DNA of 64,000 nt from Atopobium sp. (lineage in GTDB: Bacteria > Actinomycetota > Coriobacteriia > Coriobacteriales > Atopobiaceae), in assembly GCA_015258765.1 (NCBI GenBank), contig JABZHQ010000001.1, forward strand, positions 26,820 to 90,819, in the 5' to 3' direction. Under the pieces are notes generated by a model. The model was given only the letters and a program-made list of their open reading frames with translations. It was not told the DNA's origin and ran no database searches. How positions within the stretch are numbered: the stretch's first letter is position 1; every line of letters starts with the position of its first letter. Shown here piece by piece: positions 30,744 to 62,739 of the stretch. A program made the position numbers and the translations under genes.

Positions 30744-30800
30744 ACGATTTCTCGCCAAGGAGACGATTTTCTCGTCAAAAAATGCAGATATCTGAAATTC

Positions 30801-31559
30801 TTGTTGCTGCGCGGGAACAAGAAACGTATGTATACGCAGCCAAACATAGCAGTTGTTTCAGTCAATACTGACCTTGACGTGAGGGGAGTCCCGCGCGTGA
30901 AGGCTCAGATTGAGCAGCTCATTGATAGCGGCTGTAGAAGAATTGTGCTGAATATGTCGGAGGTTTCGTACATCGATTCATGCGGCATGGGCTTTATTGT
31001 GTGCGCTGTTCGACGTATGAAGACGCTTGGTGGCCTTATGAGCTTGACCAACGTGCAACCAACGGCGTTTAAGGCCTTGGTGCGCATGGGTCTTATCGAC
31101 TTCATGCCAATAAGTACCTGCGCTGCAAAGTCGCGCGTGACTCCGCTTGCGCCGGGCACGCATCCATCGTTCCAGACAACGTTTAGAGTTGATCCCAATA
31201 AAATGTGCGACGCTCGCTCAAGGGCTATCGCGCTGCTGAAGACGCTGCCGTTTACCTCGGATCAAAAGTTTGACATTGAACTTGCAGTTGGCGAAGCTAT
31301 TGGCAACGCCGTTGATCACGCGTGCGAGAAGGGCGTTCTGACCACGGTTTCCGCGTATCCAGATAGGGTGGTCATTGACGTCTCGGATTGCGGCAGCGGC
31401 TTTAGCATTTCCGATGAGGAGGAACCTCCCGAGACTGGCCAGTTTGCCGAGCGTGGTCGCGGCGTCAAGTTGATGCGCCTGCTTATGGATGCCGTGTCTA
31501 TCCAGGAGAAACCTTCCGGCAACGGCACCGTCGTCCGCCTGGTCAAGATGATGCGCTAG
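30801..31559 (+). CDS. Fusion protein: anti-sigma-factor antagonist (STAS) domain + RsbW/SpoIIAB-like HATPase_c kinase domain
   Basis: 252 aa; STAS motif 'MSEVSYIDSCGMGFIV'; C-terminal 'ELAVGEAIGNAVDHA' (N-box) and 'DCGSGF', 'RGRGVKLM' (G-boxes) of GHKL kinases. Confidence 0.75.
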   Translation: MLLRGNKKRMYTQPNIAVVSVNTDLDVRGVPRVKAQIEQLIDSGCRRIVLNMSEVSYIDSCGMGFIVCAVRRMKTLGGLMSLTNVQPTAFKALVRMGLIDFMPISTCAAKSRVTPLAPGTHPSFQTTFRVDPNKMCDARSRAIALLKTLPFTSDQKFDIELAVGEAIGNAVDHACEKGVLTTVSAYPDRVVIDVSDCGSGFSISDEEEPPETGQFAERGRGVKLMRLLMDAVSIQEKPSGNGTVVRLVKMMR

Positions 31560-31689
31560 GGCGTGCGAGCGCGGGCGGGTCGCAAGGCGATTTCAACCCG
31601 GTATCTACTTCGTGTGGATACCGGGTTTCTTGTGCGGAAATGCTGGGAGTGGACGGGTTTCTCGCCAGGCGGGTGGCGCGAGCTGGGCG

Positions 31690-31970
31690 TACGCTTGAGC
31701 GCGCCTGATTTTTTCGTCAAGTCTGAACGATTTGCCTGAAAAGCACACCTAGTCTGAGCTATTTGCCGGTTTTTCTCGCCAAGTCTGAGTAAATTTACTC
31801 AGACATGGTGAGGTTTTCAGGCTCGCAAAATTTGGAGACAGCACCCTAGTTAGAACGTGCCTGATTTCTGCAAAGAATCTGTAACTTCTGCCTAAATAAG
31901 TAAAAGAATCGGTGGATTTGCCTGATTTTGTAAAAGAATCGGTGTCACAAATACAGATTCTTTGCACTTT
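31690..31970. repeat. Repeat-dense noncoding region (multiple short direct repeats and a 20-bp perfect palindrome)
   Basis: AGTCTGA(A/G)C(G/T)ATTTGCC x2, GTAAAAGAATCGGTG x2, TGCAAAGAATCTG/CAGATTCTTTGCA inverted pair, palindrome TCTGAGTAAATTTACTCAGA, GGTTT(T)TCTCGCCA copies. Confidence 0.6.
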
Positions 31971-32011
31971 TCAGGCGCGTCTGACTAAAACCCAAGCAAG
32001 CACGGTTATGC

Positions 32012-32045: not shown

Positions 32046-32056
32046 GTCAATTCACT

Positions 32057-32444: not shown

Positions 32445-33347
32445 ATGTTCTTTATTGTCGCGTCGCTCATAGCTCTTTTGACGCTTGCGTATCTTGTCGC
32501 AAGCGGTTTTGTTCGCGTGGTGCGCTATTTTTGGGGCTGGCTTTCGTCTGGCGAGAAGATCGATGGGCTCGCAGGTGACGCTCCTAGCGCTGCATCGGAC
32601 GCACCTGACGGCGCTACCGGTGCCGCATCAGCCGCACCGTTCTCCAAGCCAAAACCAACGCAAGCCGAGCTTTCGGCGTACTTGGACAAGATGCATCTTG
32701 GCTGGTACCAGGTGGTTATTCTCTTCATTGTGGGTTGCATGGCTGGCCTTCTTATCGAAGAGATCTGGATGCTCATTACCGCCGGCCTGACCGAGAGCAG
32801 GGTGGGACTTATTTGGGGACCGTTCTCTCCACTTTATGGAACCGGCGCGGTGTTTCTGACGGTAATTTGCTACCAGCTGCACAAGCATCACGCCAATAAC
32901 CTGGTCATTTTCTTGGTTTCAGTTGTTGTTGGCGGCACGCTTGAGCAGCTTACCGGCTGGGGAATGCAAGAGATTTTCCACTCGGAGTCATGGACGTATG
33001 CCCATCTTCCAGACGCAATCACACAGTGGGTGGCCTGGCGATTCTTAGGCTTTTGGGGCATTTTGGGCCTCATTTGGTGTCGTGTCATCATGCCTCGCGC
33101 GCTCTACAAGATTGGCGAGCCAACATCAAAAAGGCAAGCAATTTTTGTTACCCTGCTTACGGTGTATCTTGTTGCCGACATCACTATGACGGTGGCGTGT
33201 TTGGCGAGAAAAGCTCAGCGAGACGCTGGTATTCCTCCGACAAACGCGTTTGAGATGTGGGTAGATAATCACTACGATGACAGCTTTGTATCTGCTCGAT
33301 TCCAGAACATGACGTTTACGTCGCCAGATTCGCCTGACAAGTCATAG
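32445..33347 (+). CDS. Hypothetical polytopic membrane protein
   Basis: 300 aa, ~6 predicted TM helices, Ala/Ser-rich N-proximal linker; no recognisable catalytic motif. Confidence 0.6.
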   Translation: MFFIVASLIALLTLAYLVASGFVRVVRYFWGWLSSGEKIDGLAGDAPSAASDAPDGATGAASAAPFSKPKPTQAELSAYLDKMHLGWYQVVILFIVGCMAGLLIEEIWMLITAGLTESRVGLIWGPFSPLYGTGAVFLTVICYQLHKHHANNLVIFLVSVVVGGTLEQLTGWGMQEIFHSESWTYAHLPDAITQWVAWRFLGFWGILGLIWCRVIMPRALYKIGEPTSKRQAIFVTLLTVYLVADITMTVACLARKAQRDAGIPPTNAFEMWVDNHYDDSFVSARFQNMTFTSPDSPDKS

Positions 33348-35738: not shown

Positions 35739-35845
35739 AATGAAAAGCAGGTAGGTGGCGAGAAACCCTTTGAGGTTGCATCGTTTACCTGAAAAGAGTG
35801 TTGTTTCTGTACACGTATTGTGATTCAGAGTCCAAGGAGGTGCCC

Positions 35846-37144
35846 ATGGATCGCCCAGATGGCGCGTCTGAAACCGAGCACCCCTCATCTACACCGAAGG
35901 TAACGATGAAGATTGGATCTACAACCGTTAAGGGTGTTTCAACTAAAAAGCCTAAGATTAGTGTTGCTCCAACTTCTTCATCTGAGCAGGTAGAAGAGGC
36001 AAAAGAGAGCTTTGGTCAAGTTAGAAAGAGCATTCTCTTCCTCTTTGCGGTTGTAATACTGTACGCACTCTATATCGTTTTCTCTGGTCAGTTTGATGAG
36101 TTTGTTGTTGCTCTAGCAGACGTAGATACAGGTTGGCTTATTGCTGGCGCTCTTTGCTACTTTGTCTACTATTTCCTGGGTATTCTCGCCTATGTAATTT
36201 CAGTCATTACAGACCCCGAGAGTCCTGTTGGTGTCCGTGACCTGATGAGCGTTGAGGCGTCGGGCATCTTCTTTATGAACCTCACGCCAAACGGTGCAGG
36301 TGCTGCTCCTGCTCAAATTTATCGCCTCACTCGTGCGGGTATTTCCGTTGGTCAGGCAGGAGCTTTACAGTTCACACGTTTTGTTATGTACGAGGCAGGC
36401 GAGGGCATCTTTGCAGCTCTGATGCTTATCTTTAGGGCCAATTATTTCTACGAGCAATTTGGCGATGTAACCGTTATTGGCGTTATTTTGTTTGGCGCAA
36501 AGATAGTGATGGTTGCAGTTATCTTGGCCATTTGCCTGCTTCCTAAAATGGTTAAGACCGTGGGCAACTGGGGCTTAAGGCTGCTTTCACGTCTTCGTAT
36601 CGTAAAGCAGTACGACCACTGGCATGGCATCATTAACACGCAGGTAGATGAGTTCTCAAACGGCTTTAAGACTGCCGCAAAGAACATCCCAGAGATGTGC
36701 GTTGTTCTGCTTGTAACACTGCTTCAGCTTGGCTGCCTCTATGCACTGCCATACTTTGTTTTGCGAGCACTTGGCCAGCCTGCAGACCTTCTGACCTGCC
36801 TTGCATCTGGATCAATGCTTGAGCTCTTGACCTCGGCCATTCCACTTCCTGGTGGTACTGGTGGTGCAGAGGGTGGCTTTGCCTTCCTGTTTGGCCATAT
36901 GTTTGGCGAGGAAATTGCCGCAGGCTTTGTGCTTTGGCGCGCTATTGAGTATCTGCTTCCAACTATGGCCGCAAGCATGCTTTTGGGCCTTAGATCTCAT
37001 GATCACGAGCCTATCTACCACAAGTGGAACCGTTTCCGTCAGCGTTTCTCGGCTTTTGTAAATGGCGAGAAAGGCGCTGTTGCTTCTACATCGTCTCGTC
37101 CAGAGACCTCTGGCATTCAAATTAAGGTTAAGCGTAAGAAGTAG
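35846..37144 (+). CDS. Flippase-like (lysylphosphatidylglycerol-synthase TM region / UPF0104 family) membrane protein
   Basis: start at ATG 35846 after AAGGAGG RBS (track ORF begins earlier at 35798); 8+ TM helices; Ser/Thr/Lys-rich N-terminus. Confidence 0.6.
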   Translation: MDRPDGASETEHPSSTPKVTMKIGSTTVKGVSTKKPKISVAPTSSSEQVEEAKESFGQVRKSILFLFAVVILYALYIVFSGQFDEFVVALADVDTGWLIAGALCYFVYYFLGILAYVISVITDPESPVGVRDLMSVEASGIFFMNLTPNGAGAAPAQIYRLTRAGISVGQAGALQFTRFVMYEAGEGIFAALMLIFRANYFYEQFGDVTVIGVILFGAKIVMVAVILAICLLPKMVKTVGNWGLRLLSRLRIVKQYDHWHGIINTQVDEFSNGFKTAAKNIPEMCVVLLVTLLQLGCLYALPYFVLRALGQPADLLTCLASGSMLELLTSAIPLPGGTGGAEGGFAFLFGHMFGEEIAAGFVLWRAIEYLLPTMAASMLLGLRSHDHEPIYHKWNRFRQRFSAFVNGEKGAVASTSSRPETSGIQIKVKRKK

Positions 37145-39074: not shown

Positions 39075-40718
39075 ATGACCGACGTCAAAGACCTCTACGA
39101 CGCGGTGATTATCGGCGGTGGGCCAGCTGGGCTCACCGCCGCCCTCTATCTGGCCCGCGCTCGCTACCGTGTTCTAGTTGTCGAGAAGGACCATTTTGGC
39201 GGACAGATCACTATTACTAATGAGGTCGTTAATTACCCGGGAGTTTTCTCTACTAGTGGCTCTGAACTCTCAGAAACCATGCGTAAGCAGGCTGAGGCCT
39301 TTGGTGCAGAGTTTTTGCTGGCAGAAGTTACTGACTTGGACATGTCCGGAGATGTTAAGGTAGTTCACACCACCAAAGGTGAGCGTCCCTGCCTCTCCGT
39401 TCTTCTCGCCACAGGAGCACATCCTCGCCATATTGGATTTGTGGGAGAAGAGGACTATCAGGGCCACGGAGTTGCTTACTGCGCCACCTGCGACGGCGAA
39501 TTCTTTACCGGCAAGGAAGTCTTTGTTATTGGTGGAGGCTTTGCAGCCGCAGAAGAAAGCGTATTTCTAACTAAGTACGCAAAGCACGTCACGGTTCTTG
39601 TGCGCGAGGAAGCATTTACCTGCGCCCCTGCGTCGTCCGAGGCTGCTCGCACTAATCCAAATATTACGGTTCTGTACAACACACAGGTTGAATCCGTTGC
39701 CGGAGATTCCGCACTTAGGTCTATTACGTACAAGAACCTCAAGACGGGCGAGAAGACCACGTTTGCTCCAGAAGATGGAGATTCTATTGGTGTCTTTGTC
39801 TTCGCGGGCTATGCGCCAGAGACTGACCTGGTAAAAGAGCTAGCTCAGACTGATGATTACGGTTATCTGATTACCAACGAGCATCAAGAAACAACCTGTG
39901 AGGGTCTCTTTGGTGCAGGCGACGTATGTCAGAAGCCACTACGTCAGGTTGCAACGGCTATTGGTCAGGCGGCAACTACTGCCACCGAGATGGAACGCTA
40001 CATCAAGCGTGCCCAGGAAAAGACCAGCCTTGTTCCGCAGATGAACGTCACGCGCATCTCGTCCAAGAAGGAGGCTCCTGAGGCTCCAGCGGCCAAGACC
40101 ACCTCTGACTCCGGAGAGCTTTTTACCGACGACATGAAGGCGCAGCTTAACGCTGTCTTTGAGCGCATGGCACGTCCGCTTGTGCTTCAGCTTGAGCTTG
40201 ATCAAAGACCTGTTTCTGAGGAGCTTGTAGCTTACATGGAAGAACTTTCTTCTATGACCGACAAGCTGAGCGTTCAAACAGTCTCAGACACGGGCGAGAA
40301 GAACCTTCCTGTTGTTCGTGTGTGCGCACAGGATGGTGCGCCAACAGGTCTTGCGTTCCACGGTGTTCCCGGCGGCCATGAGTTCACTTCGTTTGTTCTT
40401 GGACTCTACAACGCCGCAGGTCCTGGTCAACCTATTAGTGACGAGGATAAGGCATCTATTGCCGCTATCGAGTCAAAGACGCATCTCCAGGTCTTGGTAG
40501 GACTTTCTTGTACCATGTGCCCAGACGTTGTTGTAGCTGCTCAGCGCATTGCTGCGGATAATCCCCAGGTCACCTGCGATGTCTACGACATCAACCACTT
40601 CAAGGAGCTCAAAGACACCTACGATGTCATGAGCGTTCCATGCTTGGTTATCAACGACGGCCAGAAGGTTGACTTCGGCAAGAAGAATCTCTCTCAGATT
40701 CTGTCGCTGATTCCTTAA
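39075..40718 (+). CDS. ahpF: Alkyl hydroperoxide reductase subunit F-like flavoprotein with permuted domain order (TrxR-like domain N-terminal, AhpF N-terminal-type double-Trx domain C-terminal)
   Basis: 547 aa; 'VIIGGGPAGLTAALYLARA' FAD motif and 'CATCDG' redox centre in first 330 aa; C-terminal 'GHEFTSFVLGL', 'LSCTMCPDVVVAAQ', 'MSVPCLVING' match AhpF NTD motifs. Confidence 0.8.
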   Translation: MTDVKDLYDAVIIGGGPAGLTAALYLARARYRVLVVEKDHFGGQITITNEVVNYPGVFSTSGSELSETMRKQAEAFGAEFLLAEVTDLDMSGDVKVVHTTKGERPCLSVLLATGAHPRHIGFVGEEDYQGHGVAYCATCDGEFFTGKEVFVIGGGFAAAEESVFLTKYAKHVTVLVREEAFTCAPASSEAARTNPNITVLYNTQVESVAGDSALRSITYKNLKTGEKTTFAPEDGDSIGVFVFAGYAPETDLVKELAQTDDYGYLITNEHQETTCEGLFGAGDVCQKPLRQVATAIGQAATTATEMERYIKRAQEKTSLVPQMNVTRISSKKEAPEAPAAKTTSDSGELFTDDMKAQLNAVFERMARPLVLQLELDQRPVSEELVAYMEELSSMTDKLSVQTVSDTGEKNLPVVRVCAQDGAPTGLAFHGVPGGHEFTSFVLGLYNAAGPGQPISDEDKASIAAIESKTHLQVLVGLSCTMCPDVVVAAQRIAADNPQVTCDVYDINHFKELKDTYDVMSVPCLVINDGQKVDFGKKNLSQILSLIP

Positions 40719-40759
40719 AATTCATTCGCGTCAAGGAGAGGGGCGACGCTCATGAATAT

Positions 40760-40795
40760 GCCGAGAAGATCAACGGTCTTCTCGGCATTTTTTTG
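40760..40795 (+). terminator. Rho-independent terminator after ahpF
   Basis: GCCGAGAAGA-TCAACGG-TCTTCTCGGC followed by ATTTTTTT. Confidence 0.75.
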
Positions 40796-42796: not shown

Positions 42797-43579
42797 ATGC
42801 AATCTATCAGCGCATCTACCGCTGAGCAGCTGAGCTACGTAACTTCTGAGTTTTACTCTCAGCAGACGCAGAGTTTCTCGGCCACACGACAGATGCCTTG
42901 GCAGGGGTGGCAGCAGTGCCTAGATGCCATGCCTCAGCTTTTATCTGGCGAGAAACCCTCTGTACTTGATGTGGGTTGCGGCAACCTGCGCTTTGCTCGC
43001 TTTTTATGCGATGAGGCGGGGATTGTTCCGGCAAAGTATTTTGCTGTAGATAATTGCAAGCCACTGGTAGAGAGTGGTGAGGCAGACACTCATGTCTCTG
43101 AGCTGGCATTTATTGAATTAGATGTGATAACAAGCCTGCTTGACGGCACGCTTTCTTCGCGTCTTACTGTTCCGGCCTGTGATTTAGTGGTTGCGTTTGG
43201 CTTTTTGCATCATGTGCCAGGTGCACAAAAGAGAATCCAGCTTCTGCGCGCGTTGTTAAGGAAAGCCAAACCTGGCGGATTTGTGTGCGTTTCTTTCTGG
43301 CAGTTTATGAATAGCCAAAAACTTGCTGCCAAGGCTCAAGAAACCACTGCTCAAGGTCTGCGTGCGCTGGGCATAGATGCCTCAGAACTTGAGGAGCATG
43401 ACTATCTGATTGGTTGGCAAGATAAGGCAAATACCTGGCGCTATTGTCATCACTTCTCGCAAAAGGAACTGGATGAGCTTCTTGCAAGTCTTGGTTCTGA
43501 CGTGCATGCTTGTGCGCAGTTTAGTGCGGACGGTAAAGAAAACAATCTTAATCGGTATGTGATTTTGCAACGTGTATAA
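42797..43579 (+). CDS. Class I SAM-dependent methyltransferase
   Basis: motif I 'VLDVGCGNLRFARF', acidic motif II 'FAVDN', motif 'DLVVAFGFLHH'; divergent from Elp3-like gene; start ATG 42797 or 42770. Confidence 0.75.
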   Translation: MQSISASTAEQLSYVTSEFYSQQTQSFSATRQMPWQGWQQCLDAMPQLLSGEKPSVLDVGCGNLRFARFLCDEAGIVPAKYFAVDNCKPLVESGEADTHVSELAFIELDVITSLLDGTLSSRLTVPACDLVVAFGFLHHVPGAQKRIQLLRALLRKAKPGGFVCVSFWQFMNSQKLAAKAQETTAQGLRALGIDASELEEHDYLIGWQDKANTWRYCHHFSQKELDELLASLGSDVHACAQFSADGKENNLNRYVILQRV

Positions 43580-43686
43580 CTGTCCAGACAATATCTTGCT
43601 AAAAATGACCTCGTACAAGATAATCCCCCGCACAGAAATTGAACTGCCTCCCATTTCTTGGACACGAGAAATAGAAAGCAGTTCAA

Positions 43687-44452: not shown

Positions 44453-44665
44453 CATGGGCGATTGTATCACGTTCATAAGACCAGTAGTCCCGAAGTCAAA
44501 CAATCTCCAAGTAAATGAGATGTTGCGAGGGTGCGGGTTTCTCGCCATATGTTCAGCAAGGCAAGGCGGAGAAGGACCCAATTTGGCACGCTGTGTTCAT
44601 GAAAAGCAACGGCGGCCACTTTGAATGCTGCTATGATAAAGAGGCTTAAACACGAAAGGACTACC

Positions 44666-45196
44666 ATGGGACTCTTTGATCTTTTCAAGAAATCTTCCGA
44701 GGCAGCTGCGCCAGAGGCTCTTGTTGTTTCTGATTACACTGCTAAAACAATTTATGCACCAGCAAGCGGAAAAGTTGTTGCGCTAGAGAACGTTCCTGAT
44801 CCTGTTTTTGCAGGTGGCATGCTTGGTCAGGGTCTGGGTATCTGGCCCTCTGAGGGCGTTGTGTACGCGCCAGTCTCGGGCACTATTACCGCAACTACTC
44901 CAACTGTTCACGCATTTGGCATCACGGCCGATTCTGGAGAAGAGGTCTTGATTCACGTGGGCGTTGATACCGTTGAGATGAAGGGTGACGGCTTCACTGC
45001 TCTTGTCGAGCAGGATCAGCGCGTTGAGGTTGGTCAGCCACTCATGACGTTTGACCTGGATAAGGTCAAGGATGCGGGTCATCCTGAAGTAGTCATTCTT
45101 GCTATTACCAATTCTAGCGAGTATAGCAACGTAGAGGTTCTTGCTGCTGCAGACCAGCCAGTTTCTGCTGGCGAGAAGGTCTGTGTACTCGCATAA
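44666..45196 (+). CDS. Stand-alone PTS EIIA(Glc)-family protein
   Basis: 'HAFGITADSGEEVLIHVGVDTVEMKGDGF' with the two conserved His; AAAGGA RBS before ATG 44666 (track ORF begins at 44621). Confidence 0.8.
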   Translation: MGLFDLFKKSSEAAAPEALVVSDYTAKTIYAPASGKVVALENVPDPVFAGGMLGQGLGIWPSEGVVYAPVSGTITATTPTVHAFGITADSGEEVLIHVGVDTVEMKGDGFTALVEQDQRVEVGQPLMTFDLDKVKDAGHPEVVILAITNSSEYSNVEVLAAADQPVSAGEKVCVLA

Positions 45197-47629: not shown

Positions 47630-47664
47630 TGCGGCTCCTTTTGTTTGTAGCGTTTAGAAAAAAC

Positions 47665-47692
47665 CTGGCGAGAAGACCGATCTTCTCGCCAG
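47665..47692 (-). terminator. Terminator between tandem pepC genes
   Basis: perfect palindrome CTGGCGAGAAGA-CCGA-TCTTCTCGCCAG, T-run on minus strand. Confidence 0.7.
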
Positions 47693-47704
47693 ATGGTTTG
47701 TGCC

Positions 47705-49063: not shown

Positions 49064-49390
49064 GTGATCTCCTTAACTGGAATAGGTAATACAAAAACTA
49101 TATTCCCAATTAAGGTGTCCCTAGTCTAAGAGTTACCAGTTTGAAACTTTTATTTTGAGAAATTTTTGAACGGATGGTCTACGCCAACTAAGAGAGATTT
49201 TGTGACGTTATGAAATTGGCGAGAAAATATTTTCATCCAATTTACCAGCGGCAATAGAAGTATTAGCACATAGAACATATGTTTGTATTAGTAGTTATTG
49301 TCCGGCGAATCGGCTACACTATACAAAGAAATTAAGAGCCCTTGGTAAAAGAACAAATTTTGAAGCACAAAGAGAAGAGCGTAGAAAAAG

Positions 49391-53836: not shown

Positions 53837-55624
53837 ATGCGCATAGCAGTTGCACAAATGAATACTCAGGCCGGAGACTTCGAGTTTACCGCTCAGACCA
53901 TGCTGGAATATGCTCAGAGAGCTCAACAGCAAGGTGCTGAACTAGTCATTTATCCTGCGCCAACTCTTACAGGGCTGCTAAGCGTGCCAGAGGCTGACAT
54001 AGAAGGGCTTTTTGCAGACCTCTCGGAGATTATCAATTCGCTTCCAGAAAAGCTTCCAATTGCGGCCCTTATTCCTGTTGTAACAGAGTTTGATGGAAGT
54101 GCAGCGAGCGAGGCTCTTCTTGTTAGAAACGGAGCCGTAACCCCGCTAAAATTGACTGCCCAGATAGCGCACATGAGCGCTCTTGCTCGTTCTGCTAGCT
54201 CTGCACAAACATCTGGCGAGAATACCTTTGAGCTCGCAAAATTTGAAGCAGGCGGCCTTACGTTTGGCGTTGCTTTTACCTACGACGATCTTGACGCGTG
54301 GCAAGATGTCGACGACTCGTTAGATGCTGTCATTTATTTGCCGTATTTTGGCTTTGCTGTTGATGATTCGTCGTCCGCCATGGGCATGGCGGTGGCAGAA
54401 AGCCGCTATCTGGGAGATGTTGAGGAGTTTGATAGCTGGCTTATCGCTGCAAACGCTGTTGGCGCCTATGGTAACCAGGTGTTTTGTGGTTCAAGTTTCT
54501 TCTTGTCTCCTTCAGGAGATTTGGTCAAACAAGCAGCCTCATTCTCAGAAGATATGGTTGTCTGCGAGGTTGACCAAGATACTATCGAAAACTTTGATAG
54601 AGAAGATACTGCGGGTGTCTATAACAGCGCACTTACTACCTGGGGCGTATTGGCTACAGGAGTGCGAGACTACACGGTAAAGTCTGGCTTTGACGGCGTG
54701 TTTATTGCAGTTGATGGCTCGCTCAATTCTCTTGTTACCGTTGCGCTTGCTTCAGACGCTTTAGGTCCTATGCGCGTCCACGTACTGTTGCTTCCAAACA
54801 AAGATTCTCGAGCAACAAGTGCTGCGGAGTTGCTTACCGCAAGACTTCGGGTTAATAAAGTTACTGTGGACAGCACGGTTTTCTCGACATTGACCGATAC
54901 AAAATTGGTGAGTGCATACGGCTATGCATACGCTGACCAGCACAATTATTTAACGCTTGAGACTGCCGATAAAACTATTCTTGCGCTCAAGGGAACAGAG
55001 ATCTCTAGCGCTCACTCTCTGTGGCCGCTGGGAGATATGTATCACGCAGATATTGTTGACCTTGCAAGGGTAAGAAATACCTTCTCGCCAGCTATTGACC
55101 ATGCAGTTCTCGAGAATATCTCTGAGGTTGTAACTGATGGCCTAGAAAACGTTGCGCCAACTCCTCAAGAACGCATCGAGTTTGTTGATTACGTGCTTAC
55201 CAGCTATCTTGAGTGGAATAAGAGCATTTCTGCCATTGTGGAAGAAATGGGAAAGGTTGACGAGGTCAAAGCAATTATTTCTATGCTCCACGCCCGCCAA
55301 AAAGACCGCAGAAATACCACTGAGGTTCTGGAAATGTCTTCAAAGAGTCTTATAAATGCCCAAATTCCACACGCATCAGTCTGGCAAGACAGAATTAGAG
55401 ATACAAAGGCTTCCGAATCCGACCTGGTAGAGTCCTTACGGAATTCTTTGCGAGAAATTCAAGGAGCTTCTATGCATCTACCTGAGTTGTCAGTTGATCC
55501 AACAGAGGCTCAGGAGGGCTTTAAGGATATGCTGGAGCTTTTAAAAGAGCTGGCACAAGAATCTGATGCACAAATTGGCATGGTTGACCCCAAAATGTGG
55601 AGAGGCCCTTTCTCAGAAAATTAG
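53837..55624 (+). CDS. Glutamine-dependent NAD+ synthetase (NadE)-like protein with apparently degenerate catalytic motifs
   Basis: 595 aa; N-terminal CN-hydrolase-like fold then NAD-synthetase-like domain; by eye-alignment nitrilase Glu ('ELVIYPAPTL' vs 'FPELTL') and Cys ('GVAFTYDD' vs 'EICED') positions and PP-loop ('VDGSLNS' vs 'SGGLDS') are substituted. Confidence 0.55.
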   Translation: MRIAVAQMNTQAGDFEFTAQTMLEYAQRAQQQGAELVIYPAPTLTGLLSVPEADIEGLFADLSEIINSLPEKLPIAALIPVVTEFDGSAASEALLVRNGAVTPLKLTAQIAHMSALARSASSAQTSGENTFELAKFEAGGLTFGVAFTYDDLDAWQDVDDSLDAVIYLPYFGFAVDDSSSAMGMAVAESRYLGDVEEFDSWLIAANAVGAYGNQVFCGSSFFLSPSGDLVKQAASFSEDMVVCEVDQDTIENFDREDTAGVYNSALTTWGVLATGVRDYTVKSGFDGVFIAVDGSLNSLVTVALASDALGPMRVHVLLLPNKDSRATSAAELLTARLRVNKVTVDSTVFSTLTDTKLVSAYGYAYADQHNYLTLETADKTILALKGTEISSAHSLWPLGDMYHADIVDLARVRNTFSPAIDHAVLENISEVVTDGLENVAPTPQERIEFVDYVLTSYLEWNKSISAIVEEMGKVDEVKAIISMLHARQKDRRNTTEVLEMSSKSLINAQIPHASVWQDRIRDTKASESDLVESLRNSLREIQGASMHLPELSVDPTEAQEGFKDMLELLKELAQESDAQIGMVDPKMWRGPFSEN

Positions 55625-55685
55625 TTGCATCGTTTGCGCATACTCTGTGATAATATAGAACGAACGTTCTATATTAGGAGGTGCA

Positions 55686-56189
55686 ATGGTAATTCTTGGA
55701 ATAGACCCTGGTCTGGCTCACACTGGATGGGGAATTGTAGAGACAAGGGGTTCTGAATGCCGTGCACGCGCCTATGGATGCATAACTACAACCGCAGATG
55801 AACCAATAGATATGCGCTTGGGAAGAATCTATAACCAGATTGTTGAGGTTATAGATAAGTTTTCACCAGAAGCTCTTTCTATTGAGAGCATTTACTTTGG
55901 ACAAAACGTTAAATCTGCTATTCCTACTGCACATGCTCGCGGTGCTGCTATTGTCGCTTGTTCTAAAGCAGGTCTTACGGTTGGAGAATATACTCCAATG
56001 CAGATAAAGCAAGCTGTTGTCGGTACAGGAGCTGCTGATAAACAGCAGGTTATGTATATGGTTCAAAACATATTGTGCTTGGACCATCAGCCTCATCCAG
56101 ATCACGCGGCTGACGCTTTAGCTGCCGCAGTTTGTCACGCTAATCTTGTAAGAACCACCTCGCTTGGAAAGGGAAGAATACAACTATGA
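55686..56189 (+). CDS. ruvC: Holliday junction resolvase RuvC
   Basis: 'ILGIDPGLAHTGWGIV' catalytic Asp motif; upstream of ruvA/ruvB. Confidence 0.9.
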   Translation: MVILGIDPGLAHTGWGIVETRGSECRARAYGCITTTADEPIDMRLGRIYNQIVEVIDKFSPEALSIESIYFGQNVKSAIPTAHARGAAIVACSKAGLTVGEYTPMQIKQAVVGTGAADKQQVMYMVQNILCLDHQPHPDHAADALAAAVCHANLVRTTSLGKGRIQL

Positions 56190-56818
56190 TTGTCCAGCTT
56201 ACGGGCACACTTGTATCCGTTACTCCTTCAGTTGCTATTCTCGACGTTAATGGCGTTGGGTATGAGCTGGGTATATCAGCTTCAACAGCTGCTGCGCTTC
56301 CACAAGCGGGTGAAGCAGGCGTTACCGTTTTAACTCGTATGGTGGTCAGAGAAGATTCAATGGAACTCTTTGGTTTTGCTTCGCGAGAAGAGCGTGCGCT
56401 CTTTGATCGCTTGCGTGCAATTTCTGGAGTAGGTCCTAAATTGGCTCTTTCTGTGCTTTCTACGTTTACGCCACAGCAACTTGCGGTAATTGTGGCTACC
56501 AATGACGGAAATCGTCTTAAGAGTGTCTCTGGCCTTGGTAAAAAGAAGGCAGAGCGTTTAGTAATTGAACTTTCTGATGTGTTTGCAAAAGATGCAGAGC
56601 TTAAGCAGCTTGTTGGTCTTACGTCTCCTGCAGACTTTGCTGCTATTCCAAAACCTGCTGTAACCTCTGTAGAATCAGAGGCTATTGAGGCTCTTCTTGG
56701 AATGGGCTTTACTTCTCAGGAAGCAACACTTGCTCTTGAGGGGTATGAAGAGGCTGGTGCTATTACAATTGAAGCTGCTATTGGATATGCACTAAGGCGT
56801 TTGGGAAGTGGTAATTAA
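56186..56818 (+). CDS. ruvA: Holliday junction branch migration protein RuvA
   Basis: 210 aa; OB-fold N-term, HhH '[13 protein letters not shown]', '[13 protein letters not shown]'. Confidence 0.9.
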
Positions 56819-57885
56819 TGTGGGAAGCAGATACAGATAACTTATTTGAGTCGTCGTCTACTCCAGCTCCATTTCCTGGACACACTTCTCAACGTGTAGT
56901 TTCTAGTGGGCTTCAGGCAGAAGACTTGGAGCAAGATAGAAACTTGCGACCAAAAACTCTTGATGAGTATCTTGGTCAAGAGCGCGTTAAATCTAATCTC
57001 CGTGTTCTTATTGAGGCTGCAAAAAGTCGTAATGAGCCGCTTGATCACGTTATCTTTTCTGGCCCTCCAGGCCTTGGTAAAACAACGCTTGCAGGTGTTT
57101 TAGCAGGAGAAATGGGCTCAAAGCTTCATACAACCTCTGGCCCCGCAATTGAGCGAGCAGGAGATTTAGCAGCAATTCTCACCAATCTTGAAGAGGGAGA
57201 TATCCTCTTTGTTGATGAGATTCACAGACTTAATCACCAGGTTGAAGAAATTTTGTATCCAGCAATGGAAGACTTCTTCTTAGATATTGTTATTGGCAAA
57301 GGCCCTGCGGCAAGGTCAATCAGGCTTGATATTCCACGCTTTACTCTTGTAGCTGCAACAACAAGAACAGGACTTCTAACTGGCCCTTTGCGTGATCGTT
57401 TTGGTATTTCTTATCGTCTTGATTACTATACTGTTCCTGAGCTTCAGACTATTGTTATGCGCTCGGCAAACATCCTTGATGTAGAAGTTGATGAGCAGGG
57501 AGCTGCTGAAATTGCTTCTCGATCAAGAGGCACACCACGCTTGGCAAATCGTCTGTTAAAACGCGTACGAGATTACGCACAAGTTAAAGCTGAAGGTACT
57601 ATTACCTGGCAGGTAGCCTCAGAAGCGCTTTCATTCTTTGAGATTGATGAGCTTGGTCTAGATGTAATGGACGTACGTGTTTTACGTGCGCTTTGTGAGA
57701 CGTTCAGAGGTCGTCCGGTTGGTCTCACAACCATTGCAAGTGCAGTCTCAGAGGATCCGTCTACACTTGAAGATGTTTATGAGCCATATCTTTTGCAGCA
57801 AGGGCTTATTATTAGAACACCTCAAGGTAGACAGGCAACGCATGCTGCATTTGATCACTTACGTATTCCTGTTCCTACTAACTAG
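56818..57885 (+). CDS. ruvB: Holliday junction ATP-dependent helicase RuvB
   Basis: 355 aa; Walker A '[11 protein letters not shown]', Walker B '[10 protein letters not shown]', sensor motifs. Confidence 0.93.
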
Positions 57886-57899
57886 TAGATTGGAACAAA

Positions 57900-58295
57900 A
57901 TGCTTCAACGAGATTACATTTTGGAAGTAATCGATGACTTTACTTCAACGGTCACAGCAGGTTTGGGAAATGCTTTAGAGACTCAAACTGAAGAGTCACT
58001 CGATGGGGTAGAGGCAGCTGTTGCAGAGCTCATTGATTTGAGCCCAGAGACTGCTCTTGCGCTTTCGCCAGACTCTCTTGTAACGATGATGTTGCTCTCC
58101 GGCGTAGCTGATTCAGTTGCAGAGTATGTGGTGTATGCCCTCGACAGGCTCTCTCACGTTTATGAGCAACTAGGAGACGAGGATAAGGCTGGTCTCAGAA
58201 GACAGCAGGCCGTAGCGGTTGCACAGTCCTTCTCGGTAGATCAAAACGCTACTCCAGAGCAATTTAAGGATTTTGAAGCAAAGTATTTTGCGTAA
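57900..58295 (+). CDS. Hypothetical acidic cytoplasmic protein
   Basis: 131 aa, no TM, no recognised motif; occupies the slot after ruvB. Confidence 0.5.
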   Translation: MLQRDYILEVIDDFTSTVTAGLGNALETQTEESLDGVEAAVAELIDLSPETALALSPDSLVTMMLLSGVADSVAEYVVYALDRLSHVYEQLGDEDKAGLRRQQAVAVAQSFSVDQNATPEQFKDFEAKYFA

Positions 58296-58317
58296 CCACA
58301 TTTTATAAGCTAACAAA

Positions 58318-58348
58318 TAAACCCCAGCTCAATATGAGTTGGGGTTTA
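58318..58348. terminator. Bidirectional terminator between convergent genes
   Basis: AAACCCCAGCTCA-ATA-TGAGTTGGGGTTT hairpin flanked by T/A runs. Confidence 0.65.
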
Positions 58349-58376
58349 TTGCTATAGAGCGATGTAACTAGTTGGA

Positions 58377-60626
58377 TTACCAAATGACAATCTTAGTTCC
58401 ATAAGGGATGTTGTCATAAACCCACTTAGCATTTTCTGTTGCAAGACGTACGCAACCGTGGGAACCGTTGTATCCAAGCCTACCATCACGGACGGTATAA
58501 CCGTCGGAGTTATAGAGAATGGAGTGAATAAGATACTCACCAGAAATGGTCGTGTAATACCAGCATCTAAAGCCAGAGCCAAAGTAGAGACCCTTGTTAC
58601 CTACGGTAAATTGACCATGAGGGGTCCACATGCCTGGTGCTCCTGTAGTGCACTGCCATTCGTACCAAACAACCCAGTTGCCGTGTGAACCCCTGTATAC
58701 AGCAAAGCGATTGCCAGTAGTATCAATCTGAATGAGCCAGTTAGTGGCGCTATAGTAGTTTTGAGCGTAACGGTACATATCAGGGTAGTAGCAAGGTTGC
58801 TCCTCCATGGCGCCATCAGCAGCTGACCAATACAGTTTTCCACCCCAGGATACATAACCAGTTTGCATGGAACCATTATTACTGAGATAGTAGTCCTTGC
58901 CGTTATCTTTAATCCATCCGGTTTTCATCTTGCCGTCAGAATCAAGGAAGTACCAACTGCCCTTTGAATTAATCCAACCAGTTTGTTTTTCTCCATTGGA
59001 ACTAAAATAGTACCAAGTTCCGTGAATATTAAGCCATCCATCTGCTGGTGCACCATTAGAAAGATAGTAAAAATCTTTATTGTTTTCTTTTATCCAACCT
59101 GTCTTAATTTTATGGTCAGCTCCAACATTAATGGTCAATCCTGGAAGATGTACCGTTCCTGTTGGCTGTGAACCGTCATCTGTAGAGAAGACTCCTTCGG
59201 GAGAAATGAATCCAGTCAGTACTCCATCTGGACCTGCCCAACGTTTTACGCCATTTGAAAGAGTAACCCATTCATTTTTTGCTAGACCATAGCTTTTATC
59301 AAAGTAGTAGTTCTTTCCATCAATAGAATGTTCACCAACATAAGCAGCGTGATCAATTGAGCTTGGATTAAAATACCAGGTCTTATTGCCAGGAGTAGTA
59401 AACCATCCAGAGACAAGCGCGCCGCTAGATTGAGCCCAGGACAAATTTCCGTCTGGTAGGGACACCCAATTACTTGAAGTCATACCAGCATTTTCATCAA
59501 CGTAATATGAACCGCTAGGAAGTTGGAAAAGTCCAGTTTTCATGCGATGAATTGAGTCTTCTGGATCAAAGTAAAACCATTTACCATTTGGGAAATGTTT
59601 CCAACCTGAATAGAATGAGCCATAAGAATCTACCCAAGACCATGAACCATCATCATTGTGAATCCAACTATTTCTAAGGATTCCATAGTTTTCATCGAAA
59701 TGATAATATGTGCCGTCAATTTCGACGTTGCCAATAAGCGCTGGATGCTGTGGAACAGATGGATCAAAGTACCAAGTTCTACCATTTGGTGTGTTAAACC
59801 AACCAGAGGCAAGAGCGCCATTTTTTTGAGCCCAAGCCCACTCACGAGTTGGTAGTTGAATCCAACTGTTAGAAATCATACCTGCATATTCATCAATGTA
59901 ATATGAGGTACCAGAAACCTGAATTGTTCCAATTAACATACGATGACGAGGTTCTTCTGGATCAAAATAGAACCACTTGCCGTTAGGCATATGCTTCCAT
60001 CCAGAATAGTAAGTACCATCTTCAGTTGCCCATGACCAAGAACTTGCTGAACGATATACCCATCCATTTGTTACAAGTCCGTTTGTTGAATCAAAGTAGT
60101 AAAACTTACCATCAATTTCGACTTCACCGAAGATTGCCTTATGCTGCGGGTCAGTTGGATCAAAATACCAAGTTTTTCCATTAGGTGTTGTGTACAAACC
60201 CTTGACTGCATTACCAGCAGCGTCTACATAGTGCCAACCAGAATCATCTTTGATCCACTGGCTTGTGACAAGTGTTCCATCTTCTTTGTAATAGTGGAAT
60301 TGGCCGTTTTCTTGTCTCCATCCAGAAGACTGAGGAGTTGGCGAAGTATTCTCTGTTGGAACAGCAGGTGTCTGGTCTGTTGTTGGAGTTGTTGTTGGCG
60401 CTACAGGTGAGGTAGGCTGAGAGTTTTCAGGTGCTGTAGGAGAAGTATTTTCAGATGTTGCAGTAGTTTCAGTTGTTACAGCGGGGGCATTTACTGCGGA
60501 CGTATCAGTAGTCTCTGCAAGAGCAGGAGCAGCGTGGAGTCCGCAAAGTAGAGCTGCACTCAACGAAGCAACCGCAATAAGTTTTTGTGTAGAAGGTCTG
60601 TAGGAAAAACGCATCTTCTTCTCCAT
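58377..60626 (-). CDS. Secreted cell-wall-binding-repeat protein with C-terminal L,D-transpeptidase (YkuD) catalytic domain
   Basis: signal peptide 'LIAVASLSAALLCGLHAAPALA', Thr/Pro-rich linker, >15 GW/Y-rich ~20-aa cell-wall-binding repeats ('GWxxxNGKWYYFD'), C-terminal 'YNGSHGCVRLATENAKWVYD' LDT active-site motif; start at second Met (track ORF to 60704). Confidence 0.8.
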   Translation of the reverse strand: MEKKMRFSYRPSTQKLIAVASLSAALLCGLHAAPALAETTDTSAVNAPAVTTETTATSENTSPTAPENSQPTSPVAPTTTPTTDQTPAVPTENTSPTPQSSGWRQENGQFHYYKEDGTLVTSQWIKDDSGWHYVDAAGNAVKGLYTTPNGKTWYFDPTDPQHKAIFGEVEIDGKFYYFDSTNGLVTNGWVYRSASSWSWATEDGTYYSGWKHMPNGKWFYFDPEEPRHRMLIGTIQVSGTSYYIDEYAGMISNSWIQLPTREWAWAQKNGALASGWFNTPNGRTWYFDPSVPQHPALIGNVEIDGTYYHFDENYGILRNSWIHNDDGSWSWVDSYGSFYSGWKHFPNGKWFYFDPEDSIHRMKTGLFQLPSGSYYVDENAGMTSSNWVSLPDGNLSWAQSSGALVSGWFTTPGNKTWYFNPSSIDHAAYVGEHSIDGKNYYFDKSYGLAKNEWVTLSNGVKRWAGPDGVLTGFISPEGVFSTDDGSQPTGTVHLPGLTINVGADHKIKTGWIKENNKDFYYLSNGAPADGWLNIHGTWYYFSSNGEKQTGWINSKGSWYFLDSDGKMKTGWIKDNGKDYYLSNNGSMQTGYVSWGGKLYWSAADGAMEEQPCYYPDMYRYAQNYYSATNWLIQIDTTGNRFAVYRGSHGNWVVWYEWQCTTGAPGMWTPHGQFTVGNKGLYFGSGFRCWYYTTISGEYLIHSILYNSDGYTVRDGRLGYNGSHGCVRLATENAKWVYDNIPYGTKIVIW

Positions 60627-60675
60627 TGTTTTAACTCCAATAAATCCAGGTAATAAAAAGCTGCTGTAGACTAAT

Positions 60676-62400
60676 TTAGCGCTTATATGAGGTAAGCACT
60701 CCATCTGGTCCAGCCCAGCGTCTTACGCCATCGGAACGGGTAATCCACTGATTGCGAGCAAGGCCATATCCTGCGTCAAAGTAATAGTCTTTACCATCAA
60801 TAGTGTGTTCTCCAGTATAAGCAGGATGGCTTGGTTTTGCTGGATCAAAGTACCAAGTCTTGCCATTTGGCGTGGTGAACCAACCAGAAGCAAAGGCGCC
60901 ACTTGACTGTGCCCAAGCCCAACCGCCTTCCGGGAGCTGTACCCAATTGTTAGCAGTCATTCCAGCAGACTCATCAATATAATAAGTTCCACTAGAAGTT
61001 TGGATGACACCAACAAGCATACGGTGCTTGGAATCTTTGGTATCAAAATAGAACCATTTGCCATTAGGCATACGTTTCCAACCCGATTGAAGCACTCCGC
61101 TTTCTCCAGCCCAGGACCAAGAACCATCAGCTCTGTGAATCCATCCATTTTTCAGAAGACCATAACCTGAATCAAAATAATATGATTGACCGTTAATTTC
61201 AGTCTCACCAATTATTGCAGGATGCTGCGGATCTGATGGATCAAAATACCAAGTTTTGCCATTTGGAGTGGTGTACCAACCAGAAGCAAATGCACCGTTC
61301 GACTGCGCCCAAGCCCAGCCGCCATTAGGGAGCTGCACCCAATCGTTAGCGGTCATTCCTTGATTTACGTCAACGTAATAAGTTCCGCTGGAAATAGTGA
61401 AGACACCTTGCTTAAGTAGGGGGAATTCTCCATTTTCATCAAAATAGAACCACTTACCATTTGGCATGTGTTTCCACCCAGAATAAACAGAGCCTACTGT
61501 TTCAATCCAAGCCCATCCATCATCATCACCGATCCAACCATGGGTAACAAGGCCATTACTGTGATCAAAGAAATAATATTTACCATCAATATCTATTCCG
61601 CCCATTACTACTGTATTGTAATGTTCTGGGTCGGCATACCAAGTTTTGCCATCTGGAGTTTTAAACCAGCCAGAGATAGCAGCGCCATCTGGACCAGCCC
61701 AATACCAAGCTTCTACACCCTGGCCCAAATTTACCCAAGAATTTCGTAAAAGTCCTGTCGAAGTATCAAAGAAGTACAGCTTTCCATCGACCGGAACTGA
61801 TTTAGCAATAACCGGAACACCCGAACCAATTTCACTAGTTAAATACCAGGTTTTACCATTAGGAGCAGTAAACCAACCTTCAGTAAAACGCCCATCAGCT
61901 CCGGCCCAGCTCCAGCCTTTATCTGTTTTAACCCAATTGTTTTTAATCAAGCCGTTATCTTTATCTACGTAGTAGTAAGTGTAGTGATAATTAGGAGTAT
62001 TTTTATTTTCGAGAATATAAAATAAGCCATATGTAGCGTACGGTAGCCATGTCTCTGGCTCAAAATACCAGGTTTTGCCATCAGGTGTAGTATAGAAACC
62101 AGATGCTGCTGCACCTGTTTCATCTACATAATATTGATGACTGTCATAAGTAATCCACTGACTTTTTAGAATAGTTCCATCTTCAGTATAAAAATATACC
62201 TTTCCATCAACTTTTTTCCACTTTGGATAATAGGATTTAGAAGTTGATTCAGGAGCACTTACTGTGGATGTATCAGTAGTTTCTGCAAGAGCAGAAGTAG
62301 CGTGAAGTCCGCAAAGTAGAGCTGCACTCAACGAAGCAACTGCAATGAGCTTTTGCATTGAAGGCCTGCTGGACAAACATGTCTTCTTTTTCATGGGCAT
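60676..62400 (-). CDS. Secreted cell-wall-binding-repeat protein (paralog lacking catalytic domain)
   Basis: 574 aa; N-terminus nearly identical to downstream gene ('QKLIAVASLSAALLCGLHATSALAETTDTS'); ~14 cell-wall-binding repeats. Confidence 0.8.
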   Translation of the reverse strand: MPMKKKTCLSSRPSMQKLIAVASLSAALLCGLHATSALAETTDTSTVSAPESTSKSYYPKWKKVDGKVYFYTEDGTILKSQWITYDSHQYYVDETGAAASGFYTTPDGKTWYFEPETWLPYATYGLFYILENKNTPNYHYTYYYVDKDNGLIKNNWVKTDKGWSWAGADGRFTEGWFTAPNGKTWYLTSEIGSGVPVIAKSVPVDGKLYFFDTSTGLLRNSWVNLGQGVEAWYWAGPDGAAISGWFKTPDGKTWYADPEHYNTVVMGGIDIDGKYYFFDHSNGLVTHGWIGDDDGWAWIETVGSVYSGWKHMPNGKWFYFDENGEFPLLKQGVFTISSGTYYVDVNQGMTANDWVQLPNGGWAWAQSNGAFASGWYTTPNGKTWYFDPSDPQHPAIIGETEINGQSYYFDSGYGLLKNGWIHRADGSWSWAGESGVLQSGWKRMPNGKWFYFDTKDSKHRMLVGVIQTSSGTYYIDESAGMTANNWVQLPEGGWAWAQSSGAFASGWFTTPNGKTWYFDPAKPSHPAYTGEHTIDGKDYYFDAGYGLARNQWITRSDGVRRWAGPDGVLTSYKR

Positions 62401-62739
62401 ATCCTTTTTTGAAGGGATAACTTTCTATATAAATAATAGTTTGATATGTCTGTTATTGTTCCCGTAAATTAATCCTATACAAATTCTCTATCTTCTATGA
62501 AAAAATGCTCAACTAATGAGATAAAAAACGTTTAATAGCAGATATATCCATAAATAAATGCTGGAAAACAGCTTGATTACCTGTGGCTCTTCCGGTAGAT
62601 GGTGCGAAAATCTCCATGAGTGGTTTCTCGCCACATAAGTTGTTGATTAAGGTTATTATATTCCACGTGGCGAAACGTCACGGTATCGCGCTCCACAGGC
62701 GCAGTTTTGCCCTGCGGGGCTAAGAAAGAAAGGCACGAA

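Follow-up and report, generated by a model that had tools for sequence, protein, structure and literature searches.

Neisseria and Haemophilus distinguish DNA of their own kind by uptake sequences. Sequence specificity in DNA uptake is known only from the Neisseriaceae and Pasteurellaceae, according to a 2025 paper (PMC12616744). Uptake sequences occur hundreds to thousands of times per genome, with uptake signal sequences (USS) at 31 to 913 copies per Mb, and DNA uptake sequences (DUS) are contiguous motifs of up to ~13 nucleotides (nt) (PMC12616744). They are often arranged as inverted repeats that act as rho-independent terminators (PMC12616744, PMC2397512). Findlay and Redfield located 34.5 to 65% of uptake sequences in open reading frames (ORFs), with a reading frame tied to preferred codons, encoded tripeptides at about twice their usual level, and a tendency toward poorly conserved residues (PMC2817400). 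Treangen et al. described DUS as highly conserved within slightly more divergent and permissive surroundings and as rare in accessory DNA (PMC2397512). Here we describe a word, GNNYTTCTCGCCA, that is dispersed through the genome of oral Atopobium/Lancefieldella at one copy per ~2.5 to 3 kb, as seen in a 64-kb stretch of contig JABZHQ010000001.1 (this whole stretch is called the window below). The full unit of the word spans 13 bp, and it may serve natural transformation as a signal for DNA uptake or self-recognition, a reading to which we give a probability of roughly 55%. Literature searches turned up no earlier mention of the word, and none of uptake sequences or competence in Atopobium, Lancefieldella, or Coriobacteriia.

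The word is enriched independently of coding content

An unbiased k-mer scan of the window returned TTCTCGCCA as the most enriched 9-mer of meaningful count. This core, counted together with its reverse complement TGGCGAGAA, occurs 25 times (12 copies on the plus strand and 13 on the minus strand), against 1.16 copies expected under an order-3 and 3.26 under an order-4 Markov model, and composition-matched permutations of the core averaged 0.53 copies. The exact 12-mer GGTTTCTCGCCA occurs five times (31656+, 35756-, 42946-, 44536+, and 62622+), a count reached in 0 of 100 dinucleotide shuffles (expectation = 0.01), and the 13-mer with up to two mismatches was found 21 times against 1.26 expected. 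The initial annotation had reported a 12-mer repeated exactly and far above chance (about 0.01 expected), which these counts bear out, but its tally of copies was too low for a core that reaches 25. The sites that it listed are real, although two were displaced by 1 to 2 bases; the exact 13-mer GGGTTTCTCGCCA lies at 31655-31667 (+), 35756-35768 (-), 42946-42958 (-), and 44535-44547 (+), and its close variants are present at 30745-30757 (CGAT...), 31769-31781 (GTTT...), and 45338-45350 (GAGT...). All 27 one-mismatch neighbors of the core together account for 40 copies against 25 exact ones, so the specificity of the word is sharp.

The same enrichment was recovered from independent DNA. A scan of metagenomes seeded with the paired (hairpin) form of the word returned more than 120 loci, and 68 of these (hairpins of the GA-loop-TC type, GC content of 0.42 to 0.53) hold further copies, whereas the remaining loci, with other loop types and GC contents, hold none. 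Two matches to viral contigs were chance hairpins with no further copies there. After removal of redundancy and masking of the seeding hairpins, the pool comprised 198 kb of new sequence and contained 58 copies (0.29 per kb) against 3.2 expected, with TTCTCGCCA again the top 9-mer. Flanks free of this ascertainment (20 kb from the same contig or a sister strain) gave 0.40 and 0.31 to 0.41 copies per kb. Per Mb, the core thus numbers 391 copies in the window, 294 in the pool, and 310 to 410 in the flanks, and the ratio of observed to expected copies in the window and pool was 7.7 to 8.6 under the order-4 model and 18 to 22 under the order-3 model.

Alignment of 83 instances from the window and the pool defined the full unit as a contiguous 13 bp, G-N-N-Y-TTCTCGCCA, with G at position -4 in 87% and a pyrimidine (Y) at position -1 in 98% of instances; both were present in all eight new copies from the flanks. 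Information content was ~0 outside these 13 bp, so the word is not a piece of a longer repeat. A miniature inverted-repeat transposable element (MITE) or other longer repeat was ruled out, as no similarity extended beyond the 13 bp in the 83 instances.

Over-representation in both genes and spacers, in a window that encodes uvrC and ruvCAB, is also what might be expected of a polar signal of the Chi or FtsK-orienting polar sequence (KOPS) kind, read by a helicase-nuclease (AddAB, RecBCD, or AdnAB) or by FtsK. Chromosome signals that occur at high density are strand skewed (KOPS and Chi), whereas others are sparse (parS, matS, and the NBS and SBS binding sites). The window has a positive GC skew throughout and ~80% of its genes on the plus strand, yet the copies divide 12:13 between strands (P = 0.011 under a Chi-like skew of 75%), and a proposed check for strand bias relative to replication accordingly gave no skew. 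The word is also long for Chi at 13 bp, and inverted pairs have no role in such systems. Polarity of this kind is ruled out within the window, and the explanation is largely refuted and highly improbable.

To account for protein sequence and codon usage, we shuffled synonymous codons within each gene while holding both fixed (1,000 shuffles). The coding sequences (CDSs) hold 15 copies, against 2.55 ± 1.43 in the shuffles (maximum of 8 in 1,000). The frame xxT-GGC-GAG-AAR, which encodes Gly-Glu-Lys (GEK) with preferred codons, accounts for 9 of the 15, and xTT-CTC-GCC-A accounts for 4. GEK tripeptides are encoded by GGCGAGAA in 12 of 14 cases, where codon usage predicts ~28%, and T directly precedes GGCGAGAA in 25 of 32 cases; this preference for a flanking T is missing from high-GC relatives, in which GGCGAGAA is common. 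The G at position -4 coincides with a synonymous site of the following codon. GEK itself is 3.3-fold above expectation, compared with 0.24 to 1.66 for its five permutations. Orthologues could be aligned at five sites, and at three of these the motif-free Atopobiaceae have other residues, at poorly conserved positions (RGDR/QGRK versus SGEK, FNRK/FDRK versus LARK, and NGET versus NGEK).

These results bear on the idea that the word is a compositional, codon-usage, GEK-peptide, or assembly artifact, which draws on the preferred codons of the GGC-GAG-AAR frame and on the hexamer TTCTCG, generically enriched ~3- to 4-fold across the family. The codon bias for GEK that the initial annotation named as a possible explanation does not account for the frequency, given 15 CDS copies against 2.55 after synonymous shuffling. 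Codon and peptide bias is ruled out by that shuffle, by the specificity of the flanking bases, and by the 40% of copies that are noncoding, and copies stand at orthologous positions in independent isolates and metagenome-assembled genome (MAG) assemblies. The artifact explanation is already refuted, and we regard its probability as negligible.

Copies in genes, spacers, and predicted terminators

Copies were mapped to CDSs or spacers, the noncoding share of the window being 10.7%. The single copies are listed here with the bases that precede the core.

3164-3176, minus strand: 13-mer copy GAAC-TTCTCGCCA inside uvrC, frame xxT-GGC-GAG-AAG (R-G-E-K)
15011-15023, minus strand: 13-mer copy GATT- inside the ROK kinase gene, G-E-K frame
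19539-19551, minus strand: 13-mer copy GGCC- inside pgk, Y-G-E-K, a peptide also kept in motif-free relatives
21341-21353, plus strand: 13-mer copy GATC-, intergenic, with secG starting 18 bp downstream
28497-28509, plus strand: 13-mer copy GTTC- inside the SpoIIE/GAF phosphatase gene, L-L-A-N
31655-31667, plus strand: full 13-mer GGGTTTCTCGCCA, intergenic, 100% conserved in 5 relatives
31769-31781, plus strand: 13-mer copy GTTT-, intergenic, within one unit of a local repeat cluster
32549-32561, minus strand: 13-mer copy GATC- in the CmpB-like gene, S-G-E-K (RGDR/QGRK in motif-free relatives)
33202-33214, minus strand: 13-mer copy GCTT- in the CmpB-like gene, L-A-R-K (FNRK/FDRK in relatives)
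35756-35768, minus strand: full 13-mer, intergenic, 18 bp past the mnmA stop
37063-37075, minus strand: 13-mer copy GCCT- in the LPG-synthase-TM gene, N-G-E-K (NGET in distant relatives)
39399-39411, plus strand: 13-mer copy GTTC- in the AhpF-like gene
42946-42958, minus strand: full 13-mer inside the methyltransferase gene, S-G-E-K
44535-44547, plus strand: full 13-mer, intergenic, with rnpB (minus strand) on one side and the EIIA gene (plus strand) on the other
45169-45181, minus strand: 13-mer copy GACC- at the end of the EIIA gene, A-G-E-K
45338-45350, plus strand: 13-mer copy GAGT- in the UPF0029 gene, F-L-A-T
45740-45752, plus strand: 13-mer copy GTTT- in the UPF0029 gene, F-L-A-I
49217-49229, minus strand: core copy TATT-, without the -4 G, intergenic between pepC and dnaE
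54214-54226, minus strand: core copy GGTA- in the NAD-synthase-like gene, S-G-E-N
55078-55090, plus strand: core copy TACC- in the NAD-synthase-like gene, F-S-P frame
62621-62633, plus strand: core copy TGGT-, intergenic, with cspA starting 74 bp downstream

Single, unpaired copies make up 21 of the 25. Noncoding DNA holds 10 copies (40%; P = 1.4e-4), and the other 15 (60%) lie in CDSs. The initial annotation placed the intergenic copies 80 to 120 bp upstream of genes, which holds approximately for three of them (the distances are 84 bp to the 5' end of rnpB and 74 bp to each of the EIIA and cspA starts) but not for the others, which lie 6 to 18 bp past stop codons, inside terminators, and in convergent and divergent spacers. 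Since intergenic copies also follow stops or sit in terminators, the word has no consistent position relative to promoters, and the suggested link to the rnpB, cspA, and EIIA promoters is not meaningful.

These positions matter for the view that an abundant sequence-specific DNA-binding protein (nucleoid associated, chromosome organizing, or a very global regulator) recognizes the word, each site being kept by selection and not by uptake bias. Such a protein would agree with the sharp, nonpalindromic 13-bp logo, with a -4 G that is kept even where it is unpaired in hairpin loops, with the conservation of copies above their flanks, and with the several intergenic copies 74 to 84 bp from gene starts. 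On the other hand, the copies are 60% intragenic at ~0.3 to 0.4 per kb, their position relative to promoters is variable, and in the absence of drive it is difficult to see how selection on individual sites could be strong enough to alter both synonymous positions and amino acids at hundreds of them. We therefore regard this view as unlikely. A transcription factor operator was likewise rejected, because the copies are not concentrated at promoters and the intergenic ones are scattered. Between the two functions offered at first, a DUS-like genome-wide oligomer is consistent with every sequence-level test run, whereas a global-regulator site fits poorly with the intragenic share and density, the lack of a fixed position, and the use of the word in terminator arms.

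Several copies and variants are combined into inverted pairs.

30725-30757, unstranded: inverted pair TGGCGAGAA-15 nt-TTCTCGCCA across the phosphatase gene stop codon
30768-30777: degenerate third copy TTTCTCGTCA after the preceding pair
47663-47694, minus strand: perfect 26-nt inverted pair of abutting 13-mers, TGGCGAGAAGACC followed by GATCTTCTCGCCA, a predicted intrinsic terminator of pepC (47705-49063) with its T-run on the minus strand
40758-40788, plus strand: hairpin past the AhpF-like gene, arms TGCCGAGAAGATC and GGTCTTCTCGGCA with an identical variant base in both, then T7
21649-21674, plus strand: hairpin past secG, arms TGCCGAGAAACCC and GAGTTTTTCGGCA, degenerate variant copies, then a T-run

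Exact inverted pairs within 30 bp number 2 against 0.15 expected (P = 0.01), and of the window's strong hairpins that resemble terminators, roughly one in four is built from the word. The pair at 30725-30757 is a wider one placed around a stop codon, and the hairpins at 40758-40788 and 21649-21674 are based on the one-base variant TTCTCGGCA. An earlier claim that the core forms the arms of two terminators thus stands for the perfect pair (given as 47665-47692), but the other hairpin (given as 40760-40786) has arms of TTCTCGGCA and not TTCTCGCCA. Metagenome loci of the lineage contain more than 30 distinct word-built hairpin sequences, all at gene ends with T-runs, and their preferred core-to-core spacings are 12 nt and 8 nt, the latter in abutting 13-mers that together span 26 nt. 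The paired copies are thus predicted to act as terminators. Among hairpins of abutting 13-mers, the unpaired loop center is C|G (the two -4 positions) in 7 of 10 distinct sequences. Because these conserved -4 bases are not needed for a stem, the word appears to be read as DNA rather than as an RNA stem, which argues for recognition of the 13-mer as DNA and a secondary role in termination.

The abundance of hairpins (three to four word-built ones in the window and the more than 30 in lineage loci) could also mean that the palindromic hairpin is the functional unit, either a favored terminator module or an element like repetitive extragenic palindromic (REP) sequences and bacterial interspersed mosaic elements (BIMEs), with single copies as decayed or half elements. 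However, 21 of 25 copies are single and 15 lie in CDSs, the flanks of single copies have no trace of a second arm, and the CDS excess survives the codon-shuffle null, so that we consider this very unlikely. REP/BIME membership, which implies strictly extragenic whole palindromes, was rejected on the same grounds.

Two of the pairs adjoin genes of separate interest. The phosphatase gene belongs to a partner-switching-type module (28365-31559) in which a 792-amino-acid (aa) protein with GAF and SpoIIE (PP2C) phosphatase domains precedes a fusion of STAS and HATPase_c_2, i.e., an anti-sigma antagonist and an anti-sigma kinase domain in one protein, in a non-sporulating member of the Coriobacteriia; the junction of the two genes carries the inverted motif pair. 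Tandem pepC (Peptidase_C1_2) paralogues occupy 46160-49063 on the minus strand with the perfect motif hairpin between them, and the downstream copy matches its profile in two separate stretches, which suggests insertion or divergence.

Long intervals lack the core altogether. The longest are 3177-15010 (11.8 kb), with an ORF without Pfam match (4422-5093), an opp-type transporter, two AXE1 esterases, and nanA, and 55091-62620 (7.5 kb), with ruvCAB and two choline-binding-repeat wall proteins. GC content falls to 0.434 in the first (0.43 to 0.50 in the opp and nan genes) and is 0.43 to 0.44 in the second.

Conservation and lineage restriction

The relatives used for comparison are 92 to 95% identical to the window at the DNA level. 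The core was more conserved than its own ±30-bp flanks at 13 of 15 sites (mean difference of +9.1 points, Wilcoxon P = 0.0016), and the flanks of copies were 89.7% identical, compared with a regional average of 93.8%. Neisseria DUS have the same pattern of conserved copies in more-divergent flanks. The copies at 33202 and 39403 are polymorphic between relatives, and at 37063 close relatives hold an upgraded, full GGGT form.

The window is ordinary core chromosome from a 146-kb contig of an oral Atopobium sp. MAG. Its genes include murJ, uvrC, opp-type and sialic acid genes, rapZ-whiA-gap-pgk-tpi-secG, the SpoIIE/GAF phosphatase with its STAS-kinase partner, iscS-mnmA, ahpC/F, rnpB, a phosphotransferase system (PTS) EIIA gene, two pepC genes, dnaE, ruvCAB, choline-binding wall proteins, cspA, and four tRNAs. 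Atopobium sp. BS2 and seven other species-level representatives have an MnmA 99% identical to that of the window, and the Lancefieldella isolate Marseille-Q7238 shares the same 90% protein cluster. The eight species-level oral Atopobium genomes, including isolate BS2, contain 3 to 8 copies per 10 kb. In contrast, three Atopobiaceae lineages of similar GC content (~0.5; L034, L035, and L047) have zero copies, the dispersed motif is also absent from Olsenella, Tractidigestivibacter, and Parafannyhessea, and Olsenella and its relatives have no T-specific excess. Restriction of the word to the oral Atopobium sp. clade is clear.

Enrichment that is dispersed, strand symmetric, present in genes and spacers, and lineage specific might also arise as a by-product of mutation, repair, or gene conversion bias, as in highly iterated palindrome 1 (HIP1), with no role in uptake, and the function of the word is itself argued from sequence. 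Known repair biases, such as that of very-short-patch (VSP) repair, yield small enrichments of 4- to 5-mers and not enrichments of at least 20-fold in 9- to 13-mers. Moreover, neither the head-to-head pairs in terminators nor the sharp preponderance of exact copies over one-mismatch forms would be explained by such a bias, and we judge it quite unlikely.

Apparent dialects of the word in other Atopobiaceae were rejected, as the enriched oligomers in eight loci (L014, L024, L028, L031, L033, L047, L051, and L055) are tight local clusters of 25- to 40-bp units. The window has a cluster of this type at 31703-31980, with five to six direct and inverted units of 24 to 40 nt at a single intergenic spot a few kilobases upstream of mnmA; its units read GCCTGAWTTT..., and two embed the 13-mer or a degenerate form. 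Counterparts lie at L047 7969-8236, L014 7424-7693, L024 7098-7269, L055 7326-7472 and 13399-13534, L033 17487-17577 and 19540-19598, L031 13582-13730 and 17426-17615, L028 14857-15159, and L051 4612-4633 and 17179-17236. The unit sequence differs for each Atopobiaceae lineage, and these clusters upstream of mnmA could be operator arrays or a REP-like element.

A locus of Atopobium sp. oral taxon 199 (L209) has TTCTCG 40 times in 22 kb (~11 expected) without a sharp extension. There, TTCTCGGCA occurs in four copies versus two for TTCTCGCCA, a weak excess, and one intergenic hairpin between TOBE and luxS genes (19058-19090) has TTCTCGGCA arms. This pattern could reflect either a weak dialect of the word or only the codon background of the family. 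At two loci of lower GC content (0.43 to 0.45; L119 2157-3404 and L120 3456-5477), motif hairpins adjoin PTS operons with BglG/PRD-type antiterminators; the antiterminator in L119 is shorter than its 678-aa homologues, probably through a long-read frameshift.

Two further features of the window were noted, the first being a repeat family unrelated to the word. The spacer between the methyltransferase gene and rnpB holds a ~48-nt near-perfect hairpin, TGAACTGCCTCCCATTTCTTGGACACGAGAAATRGGAGGCAGTTCA (43639-43686; RNA fold of -31.3 kcal/mol, z = -6.0), flanked by TAGGTGTGTTT, with at least eight further copies in independent lineage loci (L110, L183, L121, and L120), several at contig ends; this family is probably a MITE- or REP-like element. 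The associated oligomer TAGGTGTG occurs at 43689, 43767, 43808, 26191, 31744, 45760, and 48228 (seven copies versus 1.6 expected). In the second opp-type operon, the solute-binding gene is split into overlapping ORFs (26311-27615 and 27453-28085, together spanning 26311-28085) that match different parts of SBP_bac_5, which suggests a frameshift, a pseudogene, or an assembly error.

A candidate uptake signal compared with known systems

Nearly all sequence hallmarks of DUS and USS appear to be present in the word. The data establish its enrichment, its independence from coding, its anatomy, its conservation, and its clade restriction; competence, a receptor, and an uptake bias in the lineage that carries it are inferred. 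Under the uptake-signal reading, the cells would have natural competence, and a DNA receptor at the surface, located on the uptake filament or close to it, would prefer duplex DNA carrying the 13-mer, such that fragments of the same lineage would be preferentially imported and then recombined. Uptake bias acting as a molecular drive, together with tolerance at permissive sites, could let the word accumulate in intergenic DNA, in frames with preferred codons (GGC-GAG-AAR), and in head-to-head pairs, the last being kept where they would also serve as rho-independent terminators. Uptake by a monoderm is plausible because Micrococcus luteus, an actinobacterium, transforms naturally, using Tad/Flp pili and ComEA/ComEC (PMC6370729). 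The stronger statement, that oral Atopobium/Lancefieldella possess a genuine DUS system, the third to have evolved independently and without precedent in monoderms or beyond the Proteobacteria, seems to us evenly balanced on present sequence data.

Several points weigh against the uptake-signal reading. Uptake sequences have so far come from two proteobacterial families only, so that the prior for this reading is low. Natural competence in Atopobium/Lancefieldella has not been reported in the literature, and the case is built on sequence throughout. The genes comEA, comEC, and dprA and pilus genes are not among the Pfam-annotated major ORFs of the window, and searches of ~260 kb of nonredundant lineage fragments (regular expressions and Pfam) recovered no uptake genes, a sample that is uninformative on their absence. 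The copies are somewhat clumped (the first 28 kb contain 4 and the following 36 kb contain 21), and the core repair genes dnaE and ruvCAB have no core copy in the window. When the comparison is with same-class random windows, the excess in conservation is a trend only (P = 0.09, n = 11), and the sister lineages sampled have no clear dialects. The total for the genome, ~450 to 600 copies per ~1.5 Mb, is extrapolated from about 280 kb. The underlying density of 294 to 400 copies per Mb lies inside the range of 31 to 913 per Mb given for USS (PMC12616744).

If confirmed by uptake experiments, the word would be the first uptake sequence outside the Proteobacteria, and it would imply natural competence in a common member of the human oral microbiome and a new kind of sequence-specific surface receptor, such as a Com/Tad-type pilin or a ComEA-like protein. 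The long debate over drive, selection, self-recognition, and repair has rested on two proteobacterial families. A third case, with an unrelated sequence and a Gram-positive-type envelope, would indicate that the phenomenon is not bound to type IVa pili and secretins and would offer an independent test of drive-versus-selection models. It also leads to the prediction that hard-to-manipulate oral and clinical anaerobes may be naturally transformable, so that one added 13-bp word might give tractability, and the word could serve as a simple marker of native versus foreign DNA in these genomes and MAGs.

Each known class of abundant oligomer shares some of these properties. Chi and KOPS are over-represented inside genes, as the word is, but are co-oriented with replication. 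HIP1 of cyanobacteria (GCGATCGC) is likewise massively over-represented in genes and spacers, strand neutral, and lineage specific, with an unproven mechanism; however, it is an 8-bp palindrome, whereas the word is an asymmetric 13 bp that is found in terminators only when paired. The paired form resembles REP, BIME, and REPIN (REP doublets forming hairpins) elements in being a GC-rich palindrome at gene ends at many loci, yet those are strictly extragenic whole hairpins moved by REP-associated tyrosine transposases (RAYT), and the word consists mostly of single half-sites.

The USS of Pasteurellaceae (cores AAGTGCGGT and ACAAGCGGT) differ in phylum and sequence and have discontinuous AT-rich flanking segments, where the word has nothing beyond 13 bp. 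They are similar in their invariant 9-bp core, in a share within ORFs of 49 to 65% (60% here), and in a frame preference that follows preferred codons, an enriched tripeptide, and poorly conserved residues. The DUS of Neisseriaceae (AT-GCCGTCTGAA and its dialects, bound by the minor pilin ComP) are unrelated in sequence; the density of the word is ~2- to 3-fold below that in N. meningitidis, and no dialect series was seen. Unlike DUS hosts, the host here is a monoderm actinobacterium, lacking both an outer membrane and a secretin, which means that its receptor and filament, if present, would have to differ from ComP and the type IVa pilus. In their organization, DUS nevertheless resemble the word closely: both are contiguous, nonpalindromic motifs of 12 to 13 bp that are equally frequent on both strands, number in the hundreds per Mb, occur within genes as well as in spacers but are over-represented in the latter, and are restricted to a clade. 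Both also have exact copies that far outnumber each mismatch variant and form close inverted pairs with the makeup of rho-independent terminators.

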